A DNA stretch of 64,000 nt, taken from Pseudomonadota bacterium (GTDB lineage: Bacteria > Bdellovibrionota > Bdellovibrionia > Bdellovibrionales > SG-bin7). Position 1 is the first letter of the stretch. Each line of letters begins with the position of its first letter. The notes under the pieces were generated by a model. That model made no database searches, was not told the origin of the DNA, and saw only the letters and a program-made list of their open reading frames with translations. Positions 43,237-51,873 of the stretch are shown here, piece by piece. The position numbers and the translations under genes are program-made. The stretch lies in contig JAWXAY010000100.1 of assembly GCA_034439715.1 (NCBI GenBank), forward strand, positions 32,001 to 96,000, read 5' to 3'.

Positions 43237-43382
43237 AGTTTGCAGTCTTAAGAAAGCACCGACGGCAAACAAAGTTGCTGCTACATTACGCCCACTCTTT
43301 CGCAGTGCTTCTTTAAAAAGAAACTGGTACCTTAGAGGCAAATTCACTATTCTTTTTTTAGAGATACCTAAGGGATTTTAAA

Positions 43383-44942
43383 TTGGATCAAGAAATATTT
43401 GAGTGGCTGCTTTTATTAGGTCGATGGCTTCATATCACTGTCGCCATGGCGTGGATTGGCGCTTCATTCTTTTTCATGTGGCTCGATCGTACGCTTCAAA
43501 ATAATGAACTCTGGATGGTCCACGGCGGCGGATTTTACCAAGTTAAAAAACATCTCATGGGTCCGACAAGGGTTCCCAATCATTTGCACTGGTTTAAATG
43601 GGAGTCGTATTGGACCTGGCTCAGCGGACTTTTTTTAGTCATTCTGGTTTTTTATACCGGTAATGGTACTTTTCTTTTAGATTCGTCGGTTTCACAGGTC
43701 ACTTACTGGCAGGCCGTTGGCATAAGTGTGGCATCGATGCTGGTATCCTGGCTGTATTATGATTTTTTATGGGAAAGTAAACTTGCTAAAAATAAACCTA
43801 TAGTTGGGCACTTGCTAACTTTGTTGTGGTTTGTGGGTATGTCTTACTTTTTATGTCATACTCTCAGCGGTAGAGCTGCGTATATTCATGTTGGTGGCAT
43901 GCTTGGTACCTGGATGACCGCTAATGTGTTTTTGCGAATCATTCCTCGTCAACTTAAAATGGTTGAGGCCGCAAAGCTTGGCGAGACGGTAAATCAAGAG
44001 TGGAGCAAGAACGCTAAGAATCGATCGACTCACAATACCTATTTTACCTTACCTGTGATTTTCATAATGCTCAGCAATCACTTTCCGATGACCTATGGTC
44101 ATAACTTCAACTGGCTCATTCTATTAGTTATCAGCGCGGCTGGTGCTGCGATTCGTGAGTATTTTGTAGTTCGTCTGCAAAACCCTATTCGTGCGAAAAT
44201 ATTCGCTGCCGTCGGGGTCGTGTTGATTTTGGGAGTTATGTTTTTTACCAAGCAGAAGACACTTGTTCCCATAGAAACATATTCGGCTAAAGTTTCTGTA
44301 GAAAATCTTGGTCCAACGGCAAATGTTAAAGGTGTTGTAAAGTTTGTAGGACCAGTACCGGTGGGCGAAAAGTTGCAGTTACCATTGGAGTGTAGGCAGG
44401 GCCGCGAGGGCGAGACTTTTTCAAATGAAGTTGTGGTTAATAACGGTAGGATAAAAAATGTACTGATAAGAATCACCAAGGGGCTTGAAGGCAAAGTTTT
44501 TGGCGATGTGCCCGAGACTCCCGTACTCTTGGATCAAATAGATTGTCTCTATGAACCAAGGGTGATTGGTGTTCGAGTTGGCCAAAAAATAGAAATTATT
44601 AATAGTGATTCTTTATTTCACAATGTGCGAGCGCTTACCAAAAACAATGAAGAGTTTAATATTTCAATGCCACAAAAAAACGATCGCTTTACTAAAGTAT
44701 TTATGAAACCCGAAGTATTTTTACAAACAAAGTGTAGTGTACATCCCTGGATGAGTGCCTATATTGCCGTTATAGAACACCCCTTTTTTAGCGTTACTAA
44801 TGATACTGGCGAGTTTTTGATTAAGGATTTACCTTATGGGAACTATGCACTTGAAATTTGGCACGAAGTGTTCGGCGTTCAGACAAAAGAGATATCAGTA
44901 ACTAAAGATCAGGATATTGAGTTTACCTTCAAAAGGGAGTGA
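43383..44942 (+). CDS. puuD: PuuD-type membrane urate oxidase domain fused to a cupredoxin/beta-sandwich C-terminal domain
   Basis: RWLH...AWIG, LWMVHGGGFY, LHWFKWE.Y.TWLSG, SGRAAY.HVG, NV...IIP.Q, RS.HNTY.TLPV...M.SNH; C-terminal HNV...CSVHPWM; no CxxCH. Confidence 0.88.
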   Translation: MDQEIFEWLLLLGRWLHITVAMAWIGASFFFMWLDRTLQNNELWMVHGGGFYQVKKHLMGPTRVPNHLHWFKWESYWTWLSGLFLVILVFYTGNGTFLLDSSVSQVTYWQAVGISVASMLVSWLYYDFLWESKLAKNKPIVGHLLTLLWFVGMSYFLCHTLSGRAAYIHVGGMLGTWMTANVFLRIIPRQLKMVEAAKLGETVNQEWSKNAKNRSTHNTYFTLPVIFIMLSNHFPMTYGHNFNWLILLVISAAGAAIREYFVVRLQNPIRAKIFAAVGVVLILGVMFFTKQKTLVPIETYSAKVSVENLGPTANVKGVVKFVGPVPVGEKLQLPLECRQGREGETFSNEVVVNNGRIKNVLIRITKGLEGKVFGDVPETPVLLDQIDCLYEPRVIGVRVGQKIEIINSDSLFHNVRALTKNNEEFNISMPQKNDRFTKVFMKPEVFLQTKCSVHPWMSAYIAVIEHPFFSVTNDTGEFLIKDLPYGNYALEIWHEVFGVQTKEISVTKDQDIEFTFKRE

Positions 44943-44943
44943 C

Positions 44944-45267
44944 ATGATAAGCACACATATTTTAGACACAAGTAAGGGCGTGCCAGCCGCAGGCATACCC
45001 GTTAAGTTAAGGTTTAGAAATGGGGACTCGTGGGCGGAGTTAGCGGTTGGAAAAACCAACTCTGACGGGCGATGCTCCTTTGAGTGCGAAATTGCTATGG
45101 GCATTTATAAAATTGTTTTTGAGGTGGAAGAATATCTCAAAAAACAAACTAAAGATTATTTTTACTCAAAAGTACCAGTCGTATTTAAGGTAACAGATGT
45201 TGGCCGCAAGTATCACGTGCCACTACTCTTGAATCCGTTTGGCTACTCCACTTATAGAGGTAGCTGA
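44944..45267 (+). CDS. uraH: 5-hydroxyisourate hydrolase (transthyretin-like)
   Basis: STHILD...G.PA, TNSDGR, YHVPLLL.PFGYSTYRGS C-terminal signature. Confidence 0.96.
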   Translation: MISTHILDTSKGVPAAGIPVKLRFRNGDSWAELAVGKTNSDGRCSFECEIAMGIYKIVFEVEEYLKKQTKDYFYSKVPVVFKVTDVGRKYHVPLLLNPFGYSTYRGS

Positions 45268-45306
45268 AATCTGAAAACAAGAGAGATTCCTTACTATCAA
45301 GACTAT

Positions 45307-48300
45307 GTGACAGATGCGTTATTGAATTATTTGAAGCGCGAAAGCCGTCCAGTTGTCGGCGTATCTGAGTTGATGGAAGTCGGAAAAGGAGGAGGACTTG
45401 AGAATAAAGAATCGTTAAAATTTTTGTGTGAATTATACGACCAGCTAAAAGAGAATCTTAATCAAGTTTTAAACCAGAGAAAAACTGATCGTCACTTTAT
45501 CGATCAGCGAACCCGCGCTTGTTATGAGCTCAATAAAAACCTTGGTATCGATTTTATATCTCCTCAATACGAAACAATTATTGGCCATGAGGATGCAAAT
45601 GGCCGAATCGTTATCGGCCCCAAAAATGATTTTTATGCAAAAAGTGGTGGCGGTAAACCTATTGCGCAATTGCCCGATTTTTTACAGGGTCACCACGTGA
45701 CTTTATTTGGTCCGCCAGATGATGCCAAACTTTCTATAAATGCCATGAATGCCTTTTATAGAAAAACCAAGGACGAACCTGAAATCGTATCGGAACTACT
45801 TTCAACCCACTTGAGTAATCCCAAGTGGGGTGCCGACGATGAAGATTCTAAGACGCCACTTAGAGCTGATTTAGTTGCGGCCGGTGAAAATCTTACCAGG
45901 TGTTTTGCTGGCGATCTTGAGTATACCGATCCCAAAACACAAAAAAAATATGCGCTAGAAAAGGGACGACTCGCTCTCCCTATTAAGCGATTCCCGGGTT
46001 TAGCTTTACCCTGTACTTTTCTGCTATATCGAGACAATCCGCTGCCGCTTCACCTTTACGATTTTGCTCTTCATCTTTTTGAGAATTGGCATAACGAACA
46101 AGCGTTATCGTTTTATGTGCCTAAGCTCGAAAATGAAGAAGAGGCCCGATATATTTACTTGATGTGCGACACTGCAGAGGCGATGATTCAAAAACTCCAC
46201 CCCGAGTATAAAAAGGGCGCCATCAGGCTGTTTGTCGTTCTAGAAAATCCTCGGGCGATTTTTCGTGTCAATGAAATCATGGATGCACTTTACCCTTATT
46301 TTGCTGGCGCCTCTCTAGGCTGGCACGATTATTTAAGCTCCGCCGCTCGTTTGTTTAAGAATGATGCTAACTATCGGATTCCTGTTAAAGCTGATCCAGA
46401 TATAGTAATTAAATATATTAAGGCTTCACATGATTTGCTGGCACAGGTTGTTGGTTCGCGTGGTGGAGTCAAAATTGGTGGAATGTACGGCGTTCTGCCA
46501 ATGGATAGTGATCTGTTTAGTCCCTCATACCAAATTGCCATAAAGGGTTTTATAAAAGATGTCGTTACCGAGCTTAAAAGAAATCTCTCAGGTTTTTGGG
46601 TGGCACATCCCGATTTTATTCGGTGTGCACTGGCCATAGTTGAAAGCTGGAAATTTTATCAGTCAGGTGATAAATCAAAACTAGATACCTTGGTCACCTG
46701 CCTTTTAGATAAAAAATACCATAAGGAAATTAGGGAGTTTATCCATGCCCGCGATTTGGCGGGACTCGACGTCAATGACCCGCTCTATGCAAGGTCATTG
46801 ATTGTCGCCGATATTAAAGAATCGACGTTTATTGCCAATAATCATCCCGATGAAATTCGTTACAATGTGTTTCAGTCTCTGCAGTATTTGACGGATTGGT
46901 TAAGTGGCAATGGTTGTGTGGCGTTACCAGCCGAAATAGAGGGTGTGCCGGTACGAGTAATGGATGATTTGGCTACGGCCGAACGCTCCCGGTGGGAGGT
47001 CTGGCATGAGCTGCACCACGGTCGCTTTAATCTAGAGGAATTTTTGAAAATTGCGCATGAAGAGATGATATTTATACGCAAAGATCTTTCGAACTCAAAA
47101 AAAATCGTACAGGTTAAGTGGAATGAGCGGACTGAAAAATGGTACCCAGTGGCCATGAGGCTAATGATTGAACTAATGACTAGCCCGGCGCCAGTTGAAT
47201 TTGCGACTGAGCTTTTAATGTCATTTACAGTGGACTCGATTAGGCAAGAAGCAGATCCTCTTTTGGCATTGAGTAAGATAGATCCCGGCAAACTTGCTTT
47301 GAATTCATATATAGAGCGCTTTAATTACTATTTTTTAATTTGCGGCAATCTTGTTTTTGCAAAGACGATGGCCCAAAATATATCGGTTGATTTAGCGCTG
47401 GCAGAAAAACTTATAAACAACTTTACTTTGGATGAAGTTAAGGCCGCCGCGTATTTTCATGGTGACATTGGCGAGAATAAGAAAACACTTGATGAAATGG
47501 CATCAAATGAGCAGGCGCTGGTGCTGAATGAGGACAATAAAATTAAGTCCGAGTTAGCCGATCTTGGTTTTAAATACCTGCAAAAATTTGGAGTAAAGTT
47601 TTTAATTTCTGCAAAAAACAAATCTGGAAAAGAAATAGTGTCAGCGCTTAGGACGCGCCTCGAAAATACGGCTTCACAAGAATTGATCAATGCCAAGTCT
47701 GCGCTTTGGGAAATTAGCCTTAAGCGATTAAAAACTCAAGCGGAGCAAAGCCTTCATCAGCAAATCGAGAGATTGCGAGCTATGCACAATATTGGAGATG
47801 CCGCAGTCAGTGTTTCATTGCCGGGGGGAAGTGGGCAATTGCTTTGTTTTGGTGGGGCGACCGAGCAAACCTGGTTTCAATATGCGTCTTTAAGTAAAAC
47901 GTTGTCCAGTTGTTTTGCCGTCGAATACTTTCACAATAAAAATATTTCTCTCGATACTCCCGTGGATTCTTTGTTAGAAAAAACAGAATCTGCATTTCGC
48001 ATAAAGTCTGCTGAGGTTACGCTCCGTCACCTTATGAATCACACAGCGCTAAACATGCATTACGTCAACGGAGTGCCAACAGCAGAAAAAATGCCAAATG
48101 TACGTGAGTTGCTTGACCCGATTGTCGTGACCAATGTGCCGGGCACGAGATTTCAGTATTCTGGCGGCGGATTTCTAGTGCTCCAACATCTTATCGAAGC
48201 TTTAGAAGGAAAAACTATTGTTGAGATTACCAAAACGTTTTTTGACAAGTTAGATTTAAAAAATTTAAGCTTTGCACCAGTGCCTGCTCCTAATATGGAA

Positions 48301-49848
48301 AAAATGTTCCCCGCTTTTGCGGCGGGCGTCCTAGGTACTGCCACTGACATGTCGCGATTTTTAGGGTGCCTCACTGGCGCCTATAAATCGTTAGACGGCG
48401 CGGGCCCCATTTCTCATAATACTGCGATAGAGATGTTACACGGTGCAGACGTTGGAAGTTTTAAGTTCATAGGAGCAAAAATGGGGCTCGGTGTTTTTAT
48501 AGCCGAAGCTGGCCCTAATCGCCTCATGTTACATCAGGGCGCGAATGATGGGTTCCGATCGGTTTTTGTTCACTGCTTTGATGGCCCCGATAGCGGCACT
48601 GGGTTTGTGGTGCTGTGCACTGGTGATTTTAATGGGGTCTTGTTTATTTCTGAAGTAGCGCAATTAATATTTAAGGAACTTAACCTAAAAGGTGTCGACA
48701 CAAATAAATTTCTGAATAAATTTGAACTCTTAAATATCCCGCCTGAGGAAGTAGTCAATCGAGCCTATAAAAATTTACTGTTTGATGCCTTTGAGCCAGA
48801 TTTGCCGGAAGTGATCAAACAAAAGGGCCCGCTTGACCCCCTCGCTTCAAAAAATCTCGCCGTAGGCGGTAAAATCGTAGAGACCAGCAATCAAGGCTTT
48901 GCCCGAGCTGAAAATCTTTTATCTCCGCACTTGCCGACATTTGATTCTGAGCTTTATGGCCGTCAAGGAAAAATAATGGATAGCTGGGAATCTGTACGTC
49001 ATAACCCTAATTCAAACGACTATCTCATTTTTGAGTTAAAAAAACCGTCAACAATTTCTCAGGTTTCTCTATCCACAAAATATCACCTCGGGAATCACGC
49101 TGAGGCAGTGGAAATCGAAGGTCTCGACAGTCAAGGGCAGTGGCAGAGAATTATCGCGAAAACTGAGTTAAATGGACATGCCATTAAATTTCTCCTATCG
49201 CTGGCTAATAAATCGATTTTTACGACTATTAAAGTTTCGATGTTTCCTGACGGAGGATTAACCCGATTGGGTCTCTACAAAGATGAGCTCCCGGAACAGC
49301 CAAAAAACCAGATTTTTAGTGAAGGCATTCCTCACACTAATAAGCCGCTCACACCTCAGTTTAAGGGAGCACCACGTTTTTCGTCTGGCATCGAAATAGA
49401 TATTGCCAGCCAGGCTTACGGCGGAAAAATAATTAGTGTGTCGAATCAGCATTATGGTCCGGCTTCTCAAATTATTTCACCCTATCCGCCAATCAACATG
49501 TTCGATGGTTTTGAATCTGCGCGCAGTCGAGAAGCAGATCATTTCGAAGATGTGATTATTGAACTGGGTCGACCCGCAAAAATTAGCCGTATCGAAATAG
49601 ATTTTACCTACTTTAAAAACAATAACCCTCGCGAATTAAGCATAGAGGGATTATCTAAAAATGGCTGGGTTGTTTTAGTGACAAAAACAAACGTCAAAGC
49701 GTATGCCGGTAATGTGGTAGAGTTTAAGCCAAAAAATACAGAGGAGATCAAACAAGTGAAAGTCGTGGTTTTTCCAGATGGCGGAATAAATCGGGTCAAA
49801 GTTTTTACGAGACCAGAGAAGAGACCTGAGAAGGGACCAGCAACATGA
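45307..49848 (+). CDS. Multidomain purine-catabolism protein: malate synthase + OHCU decarboxylase + beta-lactamase-fold serine hydrolase + allantoicase
   Basis: aa ~1-640 ADDED/FYVPKLE/WHDY/WVAHP/MDDLATAE; aa ~670-808 HGDIG/EQA/Y.QKFG..FLI/I...RL; aa ~817-1125 ASLSK/YSGGG/HQG; aa ~1183-1500 two allantoicase repeats (MDSWES.R..FPDGG, DGFESAR..FPDGG). Confidence 0.88.
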   Translation: MTDALLNYLKRESRPVVGVSELMEVGKGGGLENKESLKFLCELYDQLKENLNQVLNQRKTDRHFIDQRTRACYELNKNLGIDFISPQYETIIGHEDANGRIVIGPKNDFYAKSGGGKPIAQLPDFLQGHHVTLFGPPDDAKLSINAMNAFYRKTKDEPEIVSELLSTHLSNPKWGADDEDSKTPLRADLVAAGENLTRCFAGDLEYTDPKTQKKYALEKGRLALPIKRFPGLALPCTFLLYRDNPLPLHLYDFALHLFENWHNEQALSFYVPKLENEEEARYIYLMCDTAEAMIQKLHPEYKKGAIRLFVVLENPRAIFRVNEIMDALYPYFAGASLGWHDYLSSAARLFKNDANYRIPVKADPDIVIKYIKASHDLLAQVVGSRGGVKIGGMYGVLPMDSDLFSPSYQIAIKGFIKDVVTELKRNLSGFWVAHPDFIRCALAIVESWKFYQSGDKSKLDTLVTCLLDKKYHKEIREFIHARDLAGLDVNDPLYARSLIVADIKESTFIANNHPDEIRYNVFQSLQYLTDWLSGNGCVALPAEIEGVPVRVMDDLATAERSRWEVWHELHHGRFNLEEFLKIAHEEMIFIRKDLSNSKKIVQVKWNERTEKWYPVAMRLMIELMTSPAPVEFATELLMSFTVDSIRQEADPLLALSKIDPGKLALNSYIERFNYYFLICGNLVFAKTMAQNISVDLALAEKLINNFTLDEVKAAAYFHGDIGENKKTLDEMASNEQALVLNEDNKIKSELADLGFKYLQKFGVKFLISAKNKSGKEIVSALRTRLENTASQELINAKSALWEISLKRLKTQAEQSLHQQIERLRAMHNIGDAAVSVSLPGGSGQLLCFGGATEQTWFQYASLSKTLSSCFAVEYFHNKNISLDTPVDSLLEKTESAFRIKSAEVTLRHLMNHTALNMHYVNGVPTAEKMPNVRELLDPIVVTNVPGTRFQYSGGGFLVLQHLIEALEGKTIVEITKTFFDKLDLKNLSFAPVPAPNMEKMFPAFAAGVLGTATDMSRFLGCLTGAYKSLDGAGPISHNTAIEMLHGADVGSFKFIGAKMGLGVFIAEAGPNRLMLHQGANDGFRSVFVHCFDGPDSGTGFVVLCTGDFNGVLFISEVAQLIFKELNLKGVDTNKFLNKFELLNIPPEEVVNRAYKNLLFDAFEPDLPEVIKQKGPLDPLASKNLAVGGKIVETSNQGFARAENLLSPHLPTFDSELYGRQGKIMDSWESVRHNPNSNDYLIFELKKPSTISQVSLSTKYHLGNHAEAVEIEGLDSQGQWQRIIAKTELNGHAIKFLLSLANKSIFTTIKVSMFPDGGLTRLGLYKDELPEQPKNQIFSEGIPHTNKPLTPQFKGAPRFSSGIEIDIASQAYGGKIISVSNQHYGPASQIISPYPPINMFDGFESARSREADHFEDVIIELGRPAKISRIEIDFTYFKNNNPRELSIEGLSKNGWVVLVTKTNVKAYAGNVVEFKPKNTEEIKQVKVVVFPDGGINRVKVFTRPEKRPEKGPAT

Positions 49849-50627
49849 AAAAGTTACGGAGGTGGGTGATTAAGGCAGGTAGTAAAATGGTGTGCGATGG
49901 TGGTCCTCTCCTTTTACTGAGTTGGATGCGGCAAGTTGATGAGTTAAGACGCAAACATAAAATCGAAGTTATTTGGGTGACTTCAGGAGCCATTTCCTGG
50001 GCTGTGAATCGCACCAAGTTTAAAAAACTGAATCGTAAACTTCAGCAAAAGCAGGCACTAAGTGCCATTGGGCAACCGTTGGTAATGGAACAGTATAATC
50101 TGGCCCTTCATAAATTAAACCTATTGGGCTCTCAGGTTTTGTTAACAGCGGGAGACATGCGAGATCGCACTCGGCGGAGAAATTTACAAAATACGCTCAA
50201 TGAAATCTTACGCTGGAAGGTCACTCCAATACTCAATGAAAATGATGCTGTTGCCACCGAAGAAATCCAGTTTGGTGACAATGATTCATTGGCCTCGCAA
50301 GTAGCCATCATGATGAAAGCCGAACGTTTGGTATTGATGACGGATGTAGACGGTCTTTTCGATGATGATCCCAAAAAGAATAAGAGAGCTAAGTTGATCA
50401 ATTATCGGCGCCGAATTAGTAAAGTAGACCTTCGCTTAGCTCGCAAAAAATCTAAATCTCTGCAAGGCACGGGCGGAATGTTTTCAAAACTTTTGGCTGT
50501 CCGTAGAGCGAGTCGCTCAGGTGTCGTCTGCCATTTGGTGCGTGGTGACTCTCCTAAAAATCTGTTAGAGATTGCCTCTGACCGGTCGGTCGGCACTCAA
50601 ATAGGTGGACTCTATGAAAACAAATAG
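49845..50627 (+). CDS. proB: Glutamate 5-kinase (no PUA domain)
   Basis: VIKAGS, VTSGA, AIGQ, NEND, FGDND.LA, GTGGM.SK. Confidence 0.95.
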   Translation: MKKLRRWVIKAGSKMVCDGGPLLLLSWMRQVDELRRKHKIEVIWVTSGAISWAVNRTKFKKLNRKLQQKQALSAIGQPLVMEQYNLALHKLNLLGSQVLLTAGDMRDRTRRRNLQNTLNEILRWKVTPILNENDAVATEEIQFGDNDSLASQVAIMMKAERLVLMTDVDGLFDDDPKKNKRAKLINYRRRISKVDLRLARKKSKSLQGTGGMFSKLLAVRRASRSGVVCHLVRGDSPKNLLEIASDRSVGTQIGGLYENK

Positions 50628-51873
50628 CGAAATGGAGCAGGCGCTCGTGTCTCTCCGCCAAGGAAACCGTCAGCTGCGAGGATTAAGTGCTGCGCGAAAA
50701 AACAAAACGTTAATAAAACTAGCAGAGATTATAGAAAGCGAAGCTCCGACAATTTTGAGCGCAAATCTCATTGATCTAAAACAGCTACCCAAAGACACAA
50801 CAGCCGCATTTCGTGACCGACTTGCGCTAGATCAAGACCGTGTGTTGGCTATGGTGCAAAGTCTGAGGGAAGTGGCAAACCTCACTGATCCCGTCGGTGA
50901 AGTCATCGATGAAAAAACTCTTTCTAATAATTTAAGACTGAAGCGGGTGCGTTCTCCTTTGGGTCTTATCTTTATGATTTTTGAGTCCCGACCAAACGTG
51001 ATTCTTGAGGCCTTTTCGCTCGCATTTAAATCCGGGAATTCAATAATACTTCGCGGCGGGTCAGACTCAGGCGCCACGAGCAAAGTAATTTATGGGTTAA
51101 TGGCTAATGCCCTTTCAGAAAGTGGCGTGGAGTTTTCGGTATTCTATGGCTTGCAAGATTATGACCGAGGCATCGTCGAGAATTTGCTAAAAAGAAAAAA
51201 TCTTATCGATGTCGTTGTTCCGAGAGGTGGAGAAAAATTAATAGATTTTGTGCAGAGTCATGCTCTTATGCCAATTATTAAAAATGATCGTGGTCTATGC
51301 CATACCTATGTAGACGAAGACGCCGATCTCGAAATGGCGGTGCGAATTGTAGCAAATGCAAAAACTCAGAGGCCCGGTGTGTGTAACGCTCTAGAGACAG
51401 TTCTCGTTCACCAAAATTGCGCTAAGGATTTTATTCCTAAGCTTTACCAGGCAACCGAATCCGTAAAATTAACCTGGCGAGTGGACCAGGCGAGCCTAAG
51501 TATTTTAAAAAATGAATCACGTGTACAGTTGGCTTCGCCAGCGGATTGGGATACAGAGTATCTTGATCTTATCATGAATTGTCGTATTGTTTCTAATTTG
51601 GATAGCGCCATTGAGCATATTGAGCGACACGGCTCAAAACACTCCGAAGCCATTGTGACAAGTTCTGAAAAAAAAGCTCGGAATTTTCAAAATGAGGTCG
51701 ATGCGGCGGCCGTTTATTGGAATGCTTCGACTCGATTTACAGATGGTTTTGAGTTTGGTTTGGGGGGCGAGCTTGGTATTAGCACTCAAAAAATTCACGT
51801 GCGGGGACCGGTTGGACTTCGCGAATTAACTACTCCCCGCTGGATTATCGATGGCGACGGGCAAGTTCGGTAA
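50605..51873 (+). CDS. proA: Gamma-glutamyl phosphate reductase
   Basis: FESRPNV, PRGG, VCNALET, NASTRFTDG, GISTQK.HVRGP.GL; start may be ATG 50614. Confidence 0.96.
   Translation: MDSMKTNSEMEQALVSLRQGNRQLRGLSAARKNKTLIKLAEIIESEAPTILSANLIDLKQLPKDTTAAFRDRLALDQDRVLAMVQSLREVANLTDPVGEVIDEKTLSNNLRLKRVRSPLGLIFMIFESRPNVILEAFSLAFKSGNSIILRGGSDSGATSKVIYGLMANALSESGVEFSVFYGLQDYDRGIVENLLKRKNLIDVVVPRGGEKLIDFVQSHALMPIIKNDRGLCHTYVDEDADLEMAVRIVANAKTQRPGVCNALETVLVHQNCAKDFIPKLYQATESVKLTWRVDQASLSILKNESRVQLASPADWDTEYLDLIMNCRIVSNLDSAIEHIERHGSKHSEAIVTSSEKKARNFQNEVDAAAVYWNASTRFTDGFEFGLGGELGISTQKIHVRGPVGLRELTTPRWIIDGDGQVR

Follow-up and report, generated by a model that had tools for sequence, protein, structure and literature searches.

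A four-domain purine-degradation protein of Bdellovibrionota with a predicted serine-type allantoinase

The window analysed here, a stretch of 64,000 nucleotides (nt) of contig JAWXAY010000100.1 from a bacterium assigned to the Bdellovibrionota, carries on its forward strand a puuD-type gene, uraH and a single long gene in which a malate-synthase-like domain, a 2-oxo-4-hydroxy-4-carboxy-5-ureidoimidazoline (OHCU) decarboxylase (UraD) domain, a beta-lactamase-fold serine hydrolase domain and an allantoicase are fused (Table 1). In the textbook pathway OHCU is converted to glyoxylate in four steps, by the decarboxylase, allantoinase, allantoicase and ureidoglycolate lyase, and only the first and third of these are recognised in the fusion by domain name. 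The pathway is well known, but for two of its steps this protein suggests new enzymes: because allantoinase and ureidoglycolate lyase are missing, these functions were assigned to the two odd domains. The beta-lactamase-fold domain is probably an allantoinase of a third kind, non-homologous to AllB and PuuE, and the malate-synthase-like domain is probably a ureidoglycolate lyase or a lyase-synthase. We regard the protein as a real new variant in a known pathway, and the case for a new enzyme type is strong.

Table 1 Features of the locus in the window; residue numbers are counted from the GTG at 45307
Feature	Position	Strand	Remarks
Four-enzyme fusion gene (predicted activities)	45271..49848	+	annotated GTG start 45307 (1513 aa); probable true start CTG 45271 (1525 aa)
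Malate-synthase-like domain	45307..47286	+	residues 1-660; keeps R228, E313, D341, C537, D554; R276->W and W277->H relative to E. coli AceB; putative ureidoglycolate lyase, possibly also malate synthase
OHCU decarboxylase (UraD) domain	47299..47742	+	residues about 665-812; H718, E735 invariant; OHCU -> S-allantoin (predicted)
Beta-lactamase-fold serine hydrolase	47749..48810	+	residues 815-1168; S861-x-x-K864, Y951, H1076-Q-G; family-specific H918, Y919, N1080, R1084; putative allantoinase
Allantoicase jelly-roll repeat 1	48820..49296	+	DSWE..RH, PDGG
Allantoicase jelly-roll repeat 2	49390..49812	+	DG.E..RSR, PDGG
uraH, 5-hydroxyisourate hydrolase	44944..45267	+	107 aa from ATG 44944; ORF finder start 44917; TIGR02962 over cut-off
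puuD-type membrane urate oxidase with C-terminal cupredoxin	43383..44942	+	invariant H413, C451, H454, M457 instead of cytochrome c

The initial annotation had described a single uninterrupted open reading frame (ORF) of 4542 nt, and this holds: positions 45307-49848 of the forward strand comprise 1513 codons with zero internal stops in a reading-frame check, and base composition is flat along them. The frame stays open for 12 codons 5' of 45307 and there encodes the family's conserved N-terminal motif, which is matched in 93 of 119 homologues; because of this the true start is probably the CTG, which lies about 10 bases downstream of a GAGG and 3 bases after the uraH stop. A scan for promoters and terminators gave no usable signal. 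Misassembly at the three domain junctions, a point that had been marked for checking, was not seen in contigs from four sequencing runs, and the architecture is conserved. One contig of run X1, which may be the source sample, covers 43300-48957 and with it all three junctions, a contig of X4 crosses junctions 1 and 2, and contigs of X6 and X7 cross junction 3; no junction has fewer than two contigs across it, and no letter differences, indels or joints were listed. These runs have year and habitat in common and may represent one campaign.

Profile searches agree with the earlier division of the chain into malate synthase, OHCU_decarbox, Beta-lactamase and two Allantoicase segments. Pfam matches to all four parts exceed the gathering cut-offs, with spans at residues 229-444 (MS_TIM-barrel), 515-635 (MS_C), 699-809 (OHCU_decarbox, PF09349; 63.6 bits, cut-off 24), 820-1109 (Beta-lactamase, PF00144; 84.7 bits, cut-off 27) and 1187-1324 (Allantoicase, PF03561; 190.8 bits in two stretches), and the second Allantoicase repeat, at about 1364-1500, was placed by alignment to yeast allantoicase. 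No domain of the fusion reaches an NCBIfam equivalog cut-off, and all four are therefore divergent. The malate-synthase-like segment scores 142.6 against 594.5 bits for TIGR01344, the UraD segment 78.1 against 139.4 for TIGR03180 and 28.6 against 96.25 for TIGR03164 (the N-terminal 40 model positions are divergent), the allantoicase segment 203.5 against 277.9 for TIGR02961, and the hydrolase 20.7 against 415 for the class C beta-lactamase model NF033085. All 120 aligned proteins have the same residues at the catalytic positions of the four domains. H718 (in HGDIG) and E735 (in EQA), which we take to be the catalytic residues of the decarboxylase, stand where the initial annotation had placed them, line up with HPRIG and EQ of the Klebsiella enzyme and show no variation among the 120 proteins; the allantoicase repeats that it had named are also present with their motifs, and yeast allantoicase is both the top sequence match and the top fold match of this part. 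By PF09349 and the His/Glu pair the fusion contains a UraD domain, and by two PF03561 repeats with their motifs an allantoicase. An AlphaFold model of residues 690-1505 (predicted local distance difference test, pLDDT, 94.5; predicted TM-score, pTM, 0.92) matches yeast allantoicase together with DD-peptidase/AmpC folds, the latter at 12-20% identity.

The architecture is widespread. A whole-length protein search returned 636 proteins, and the best 119 non-self homologues, from which domain content was taken, have the identical five Pfam families at 56-66% identity, the named ones being mostly Bdellovibrionota. Two short sequence patterns recovered 197-198 GTDB loci of the hydrolase family (a single-sequence locus scan gave nothing; alignments were required), and in the best 80, which were analysed, all segments lie in one ORF at 69 loci, contig ends cut the gene at 9 and a stop splits it at 2. 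Named carriers are Bdellovibrio, Bacteriovorax, Peredibacter and Oligoflexus, besides metagenome-assembled genomes labelled Planctomycetia, Myxococcales and Chlamydiales. Recurring neighbours at the 80 loci are puuD (65), uraH (65), xdhC (27), xdhB (25), xdhA (23) and a deaminase (8). Misassembly or read-through is ruled out by the bridging contigs, the 119 like-built homologues and the 69 single-ORF loci, and we give practically no credence to the long ORF being an artefact of assembly or gene calling: the two stop-split loci speak for it, but the fusion occurs in the complete isolate genomes of Bdellovibrio sp. HCB337 and Peredibacter sp. HCB2-198, the conservation data already refute it and the junction-bridging contigs agree. 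Single stops flagged in two further genomes (G024 and G015) are the terminal stops of intact ORFs.

The third domain had been called a serine hydrolase. This stands as far as the fold goes, as it has the penicillin-binding protein (PBP)/beta-lactamase fold and S-x-x-K, Y and H-x-G motifs (we take S-x-x-K, Y-x-x and H/K-x-G as the motifs of serine hydrolases of this fold); what went unnoticed is that the three genes lack an allantoinase and a ureidoglycolate lyase. Of 251 full domains, 249-251 retain S861, K864, Y951 and H1076, and these four together with H918, Y919, N1080 and R1084 are each present in at least 247. The domain shares its fold (TM-score by target length about 0.6-0.7) and catalytic motifs with AmpC, R61 DD-peptidase, D-amino-acid amidase, LACTB and family VIII esterases, from which it differs in its low identity (12-20%), in invariant motifs of its own (HY.G, YSG.G, P..AAG and HQ.AN.G.R) and in being internal in a longer protein that is tied to purine genes. 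The ESM Atlas offers only generic beta-lactamase clusters for it. AmpC also opens a cyclic amide, and cyanuric acid hydrolase is a precedent for Ser-Lys catalysis on cyclic ureides; from the fold we infer that ring opening would proceed through a serine acyl-enzyme.

The case for an allantoinase is built largely on where the known ones are absent. In the window's own genome (G000, 95.7% complete) no PuuE, AllB or AllA exceeds its cut-off. The best PuuE match there (TIGR03212, cut-off 424.6 bits) has 20.9 bits; AllB (TIGR03178, cut-off 357.85 bits) has no match in the fusion, and its best matches in the genome, at 279.5 and 276.6 bits, are a dihydroorotase and a dihydropyrimidinase. Three related amidohydrolases are encoded in the genome: a dihydropyrimidinase, which belongs to a pyrimidine operon, and two dihydroorotases. 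Likewise, 50 of the 80 fusion genomes were searched and contained no PuuE (0/50), no AllB over cut-off (0/50) and no AllA (0/50), the two best sub-cut-off AllB matches being dihydroorotases. A hidden allantoinase was sought among the amidohydrolases near or over 270 bits (four plus two), to which individual classification of the sub-cut-off AllB matches was confined, and all are dihydropyrimidinases or dihydroorotases.

Furthermore, the hydrolase and AllB tend to exclude each other. In a phylum sample of 251 genomes of at least 90% completeness, 55 have UraD, and each of the 32 genomes with the hydrolase is one of these; AllB (over cut-off) and PuuE were searched for in the 55 UraD-bearing genomes. 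The hydrolase without AllB was found in 31 (the fusion genomes), AllB without the hydrolase in 23, both in 1 and neither in 0, and PuuE in 0 of the 55. Three taxonomic families hold both states, and kin are not independent. Sixteen clusters fetched from the 23 AllB-only genomes all have allB, alc, uraD and uraH, with DUF6986 in 14 and allA in 2. At 80 loci with the stand-alone malate-synthase-like gene, this gene and allantoicase lie beside allB at 22, beside puuE at 3 and beside the hydrolase at none.

Two further arrangements place the hydrolase in the same gap. Pseudobacteriovorax (locus L174) has xdhABC, puuD, uraH, uraD, allA and a hydrolase+allantoicase fusion, and no PuuE or AllB was found in its genome; it thus holds every xanthine-to-glyoxylate gene except allantoinase, plus the hydrolase+allantoicase. 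A transcript-derived protein of the dinoflagellate Polykrikos kofoidii (P0381) is an independent three-enzyme fusion in which the hydrolase is joined to a PF04115 ureidoglycolate lyase and a canonical allantoicase and which ends in SKL. A ureidoglycolate lyase role for the hydrolase, also considered, is ruled out by its co-occurrence with the real lyase in these two organisms. Stand-alone hydrolases are found in algae and protists (haptophytes, chlorarachniophytes and dinoflagellates). A C-terminus resembling the peroxisomal targeting signal type 1 (PTS1), counted with what we take to be its consensus, is present in 30 of 68 of the stand-alone proteins; among the fusions it is present in 1 of 120, and 0.24% of internal tripeptides match. 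Algal purine degradation is described as partly peroxisomal in the available text of PMC9244630.

The malate-synthase-like domain has 25% identity to E. coli malate synthase A (AceB), of which it keeps R166, E250, D278, D447 and C438 as R228, E313, D341, D554 and C537, as well as residues of the adenine pocket; R166, E250 and D278 we take to be catalytic or Mg residues. D447 has a role in malate synthase A, and of the acetyl-CoA pocket residues named in the same source (PMC3112382, available text) G96, M330, P369 and C438 are identical, M102 is L or M and T95 has become F; P97 is kept too. The glyoxylate site, in contrast, is remodelled: the AceB motif G-R-W-D is G-W-H-D in 120 of 120 proteins, further invariant changes are A331Y and L252P/P253R beside R276W and W277H, and a loop insertion of 8-13 residues lies at the active site before D447. 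In an 18-row tree a long branch with support of 100/100 sets the fused and stand-alone forms apart from canonical AceB. The family comprises 407 GTDB loci, and 80 stand-alone loci were examined, with counts made by tblastn at thresholds of our own setting. Purine neighbours lie within 8 kb at 40 of the 80, aceA is beside the gene at none, and allA was found at 0 of the 80 and in 1 of 50 of their genomes; conversely, three genomes with AllA were checked and the family was absent. Twelve of the 31 fusion genomes have isocitrate lyase, and these 12 and no others have a second malate synthase of the canonical kind.

A zebrafish malate-synthase-like protein (DrMSL/UGL) is reported to be a ureidoglycolate lyase, with the changes R276I and W365M and loss of the acetyl-CoA site, and a bifunctional lyase-synthase ancestor has been proposed (PMC10120013, available text). 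The domain resembles it in having the malate synthase A fold linked to allantoicase, in the replacement of R276 and in filling the AllA slot. However, the published group is eukaryote-only and the present protein bacterial, R276 is replaced by Trp and not Ile, W365 is retained as W431 and the acetyl-CoA pocket is largely kept. A 2-residue insertion also marks the published group; the loop insertion of the present domain is longer. Judged from its sequence and context, the domain behaves as an enzyme of the ureidoglycolate step, yet by its residues it falls outside the eukaryotic lyase group. The earlier claim that three genes would take urate to malate and urea is sustained for the domains and the role in purine degradation; malate as end product is plausible only, with D447 kept and the glyoxylate site remodelled. 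A lyase-synthase, a lyase alone and a synthase alone are all compatible with the data. One stand-in may exist in AllB-type clusters: DUF6986 (PF22484; L291:11587-12942, loci L282-L297) follows allB-alc-uraD-uraH in 14 of the 16 and is missing from the 2 with allA, which makes it a candidate for a further ureidoglycolate or glyoxylate enzyme. A literature search, with most subscription journals outside its coverage, found no paper on it, and tblastn with the DUF6986 protein gave no match in the window's genome.

Several observations weigh against these two assignments. One genome (G312) has both an AllB-UraD and a hydrolase-allantoicase fusion; some fusion genomes, the window's own included, have a dihydropyrimidinase that could moonlight; the absence counts come mostly from incomplete metagenome-assembled genomes, kinship makes some of them non-independent and a few genomes are shared between the sets; a canonical PTS1 is lacking in more than half of the stand-alone hydrolases, and hydrolases of other kinds are peroxisomal as well. 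In the window's copy, moreover, hydrolase residues 985-1003 (48259-48315) form a loop of 19 residues where 97 of 120 proteins have 35, i.e., about 16 fewer than most. For the malate-synthase-like domain, only the R276 change is found out of the three published hallmarks of the lyase, 40 of the 80 stand-alone loci have no purine neighbour within 8 kb, the isocitrate lyase comparison is a weak test because aceA-aceB pairing is expected from the operon, and AllB-type clusters without AllA exist, 14 of 16 carrying DUF6986 instead. Ureidoglycolate also decays spontaneously (PMC3793230, available text), so that a lyase is not strictly needed. It is quite unlikely, in our estimation, that the hydrolase does another job, such as ureidoglycolate hydrolysis, racemisation or side-product removal, while a moonlighting dihydropyrimidinase or dihydroorotase or some unrecognised gene opens allantoin. 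The dihydropyrimidinase of the window's genome, another about 5 kb from the fusion in G030, the single genome with AllB and the hydrolase together and the great promiscuity of the Pfam family would fit it, but the hydrolase has been found next to a genuine ureidoglycolate lyase or on one chain with it, the single amidohydrolase match is weak both in Oligoflexus tunisiensis (195 bits) and in Pseudobacteriovorax L174 (182 bits), an AllB-type search at E<=1e-80 was negative in 41 of 50 fusion genomes, and no unknown neighbour recurs in the 80 loci. A low probability likewise attaches to the short loop having impaired the hydrolase of this one copy, the reading of the family being right. The loss takes out a glycine-tyrosine stretch common in homologues, and none of the other 120 aligned proteins has so short an allantoicase linker; against this, the frame and all invariant residues are intact, a contig of a second run has the identical sequence, model confidence is high through the loop, 21 residues or fewer at this site occur in 4 of 251 domains (this copy included), and the genome yielded no other allantoinase.

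If the hydrolase is taken as the allantoinase, the N-terminal domain could still be an ordinary malate synthase that clears glyoxylate set free spontaneously or by allantoicase, resembling yeast DAL7 and giving the end product named in the initial annotation. This would suit the retention of AceB G96, P97, M102 (as L/M), M330, P369, C438 and D447, whose roles are given in the available text of PMC3112382, and of W365, the clustering of malate synthase with allantoin genes in yeast (PMC3646786, available text) and the finding of no other malate synthase and no glyoxylate carboligase match in the window's genome. We nevertheless hold it to be rather unlikely, given the invariant substitutions and the active-site insertion, the long branch from canonical AceB and the mutual exclusion of the family with AllA, in contrast to yeast DAL7, which has its lyase as a neighbour. 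Why the domains are fused is a question independent of the enzyme assignments. The initial annotation had suggested a single-chain metabolon that channels intermediates; we found no support for it and consider channelling between active sites unlikely as the reason for the fusion. UraD, hydrolase and allantoicase do follow one another in pathway order, they are modelled as one confidently placed unit, and the full fusion is stable across many genomes. However, the unstable OHCU is made by an unfused UraH, the malate-synthase-like and UraD domains adjoin each other although they would catalyse the last and the first of the steps, and the modules recombine, with hydrolase+allantoicase, malate-synthase-like+UraD, AllB+UraD and Alc+UraD all occurring as separate pairings. 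Allantoin and allantoate, for their part, are stable. Even for the Urah-Urad fusion, channelling is not demonstrated according to the available text of a 2026 review (PMC13751858).

Upstream, the presence of puuD and uraH 5' of the fusion was correctly noted before, although the C-terminus of PuuD is a cupredoxin and not cytochrome c. The protein has the Urate_ox_N membrane domain (E 3e-102), and its C-terminal domain matches amicyanin/plastocyanin folds and has a His-Cys-His-Met set in which the CXXCH of cytochrome c is absent, so it departs from the canonical PuuD definition. At the 65 neighbouring fusion loci with PuuD, the cupredoxin motif is present in 47 and CXXCH in 18. The PuuD of Agrobacterium fabrum shares the membrane domain and the same cluster, whereas CXXCH is reported for all PuuD sequences there (PMC4562309, available text); our literature search, within the coverage given above, found no description of a copper PuuD.

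The reading frame, its domains, the conserved residues, the gene context and the exclusion patterns are observed, and every enzymatic activity named here is a prediction. With xdhABC on another contig of the same genome, we consider it fairly probable that puuD, uraH and the fusion form a compact urate-degradation operon, served by a xanthine dehydrogenase encoded elsewhere, that works as follows. PuuD would oxidise urate, with electrons probably leaving through the type-1 copper domain, and UraH would make OHCU. The UraD domain would convert this to S-allantoin, the ring of which the beta-lactamase-fold domain would open to allantoate, with Ser861 forming an acyl-enzyme and Lys864 and Tyr951 serving as acid/base. 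The allantoicase would then yield ureidoglycolate and urea, and the malate-synthase-like domain would free the second urea to leave glyoxylate; whether it then adds acetyl-CoA to give malate is close to an even chance. No urease or urea carboxylase exceeds its cut-off in any of five genomes searched (0/5), so urea would be the form in which nitrogen is lost, with carbon, electrons and purine disposal as the gain; we infer that such urea-discarding use of purines suits a predator that digests prey nucleic acid. Neither AllA, AllC, AllD and AllE nor Gcl and AceA of E. coli has a tblastn match in the window's genome, and a class V aminotransferase match (32% identity) offers an alternative glyoxylate route.

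A bolder and more tentative proposal, which we put forward as possible but short of probable, is that one chain carries out five reactions from OHCU to malate. It would combine a serine-type allantoinase, also peroxisomal in algae and protists, with a bifunctional ureidoglycolate lyase-malate synthase like the ancestor hypothesised in the available text of PMC10120013, fed by a copper-type PuuD, and predators would thereby turn prey purines into carbon and electrons and discard nitrogen as urea.

That the four-domain architecture had not been described, as the initial annotation supposed, agrees with our literature search, which within the same coverage found neither this architecture nor a beta-lactamase-fold allantoinase; databases list the domain string automatically. 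In the available text of the 2026 review, the words 'lactamase', 'PuuD' and 'Bdellovibrio' do not occur. AllB (a binuclear-metal amidohydrolase) and PuuE (metal-independent, with a polysaccharide-deacetylase fold) are like the hydrolase in the predicted reaction and in their place between uraD and alc, but there is no homology, the domain having the serine DD-peptidase/class C beta-lactamase fold. Two-enzyme fusions such as Urah-Urad (PMC13751858), Cryptococcus Dal2,3,3 (PMC3646786; both in their available text) and allantoicase-UraD (PRK13797) also hold purine-degradation enzymes on one chain, but here there are four, two of them in slots for which no known gene is present. If the reading is true, the serine allantoinase would be a third independent solution to the reaction and new chemistry for the beta-lactamase fold, and a family of about 198 GTDB loci, which databases now call 'serine hydrolase', 'beta-lactamase class C family' or 'malate synthase', would need renaming. 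The malate-synthase-like family would allow a direct test of the proposed bifunctional ancestor, and a natural four-step chain could serve as a template for engineered uricolytic enzymes.

Some minor observations concern the modules and their surroundings. Verrucomicrobia-labelled loci (L337, L348 and L358) have malate-synthase-like+UraD two-domain fusions of 830-860 aa, and the four-domain protein may have arisen by the joining of such a module to hydrolase+allantoicase. In a locus labelled Singulisphaera (L230) the four-domain fusion is accompanied by a cofactor-free uricase gene in place of puuD. The genome with both AllB and the hydrolase (G312, loci L280/L281) has an AllB-UraD fusion with uraH on one contig; a second contig carries puuD, the hydrolase-allantoicase gene, an allantoicase repeat standing alone, a malate-synthase-like gene of the stand-alone type and two class V aminotransferases. 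Further stand-alone proteins of the malate-synthase-like family (P0258, P0259 and P0269; 61-64% identity) come, by source names, from the sulfate-reducer relatives Desulfosediminicola and Desulfogranum, and malate synthase and isocitrate lyase matches share one open frame of 991 codons at G212:C4:45265-47670, a possible aceB-aceA fusion. Directly downstream of the window's fusion, at 49845-51873, lie proB-like (AA_kinase) and proA-like (Aldedh) genes, the former overlapping the fusion stop by 4 bases; proB and proA are absent from the recurring neighbours of the fusion at the 80 GTDB loci. Elsewhere in the same genome (L025, G000:C16:15000-29000) there is a complete reductive pyrimidine degradation operon, with mmsA, dihydropyrimidinase, a nitrilase-family amidase, an aminotransferase, preT/preA-like genes and an NCS1 permease; G030 has a comparable operon at a distance of about 5 kb from its fusion gene.

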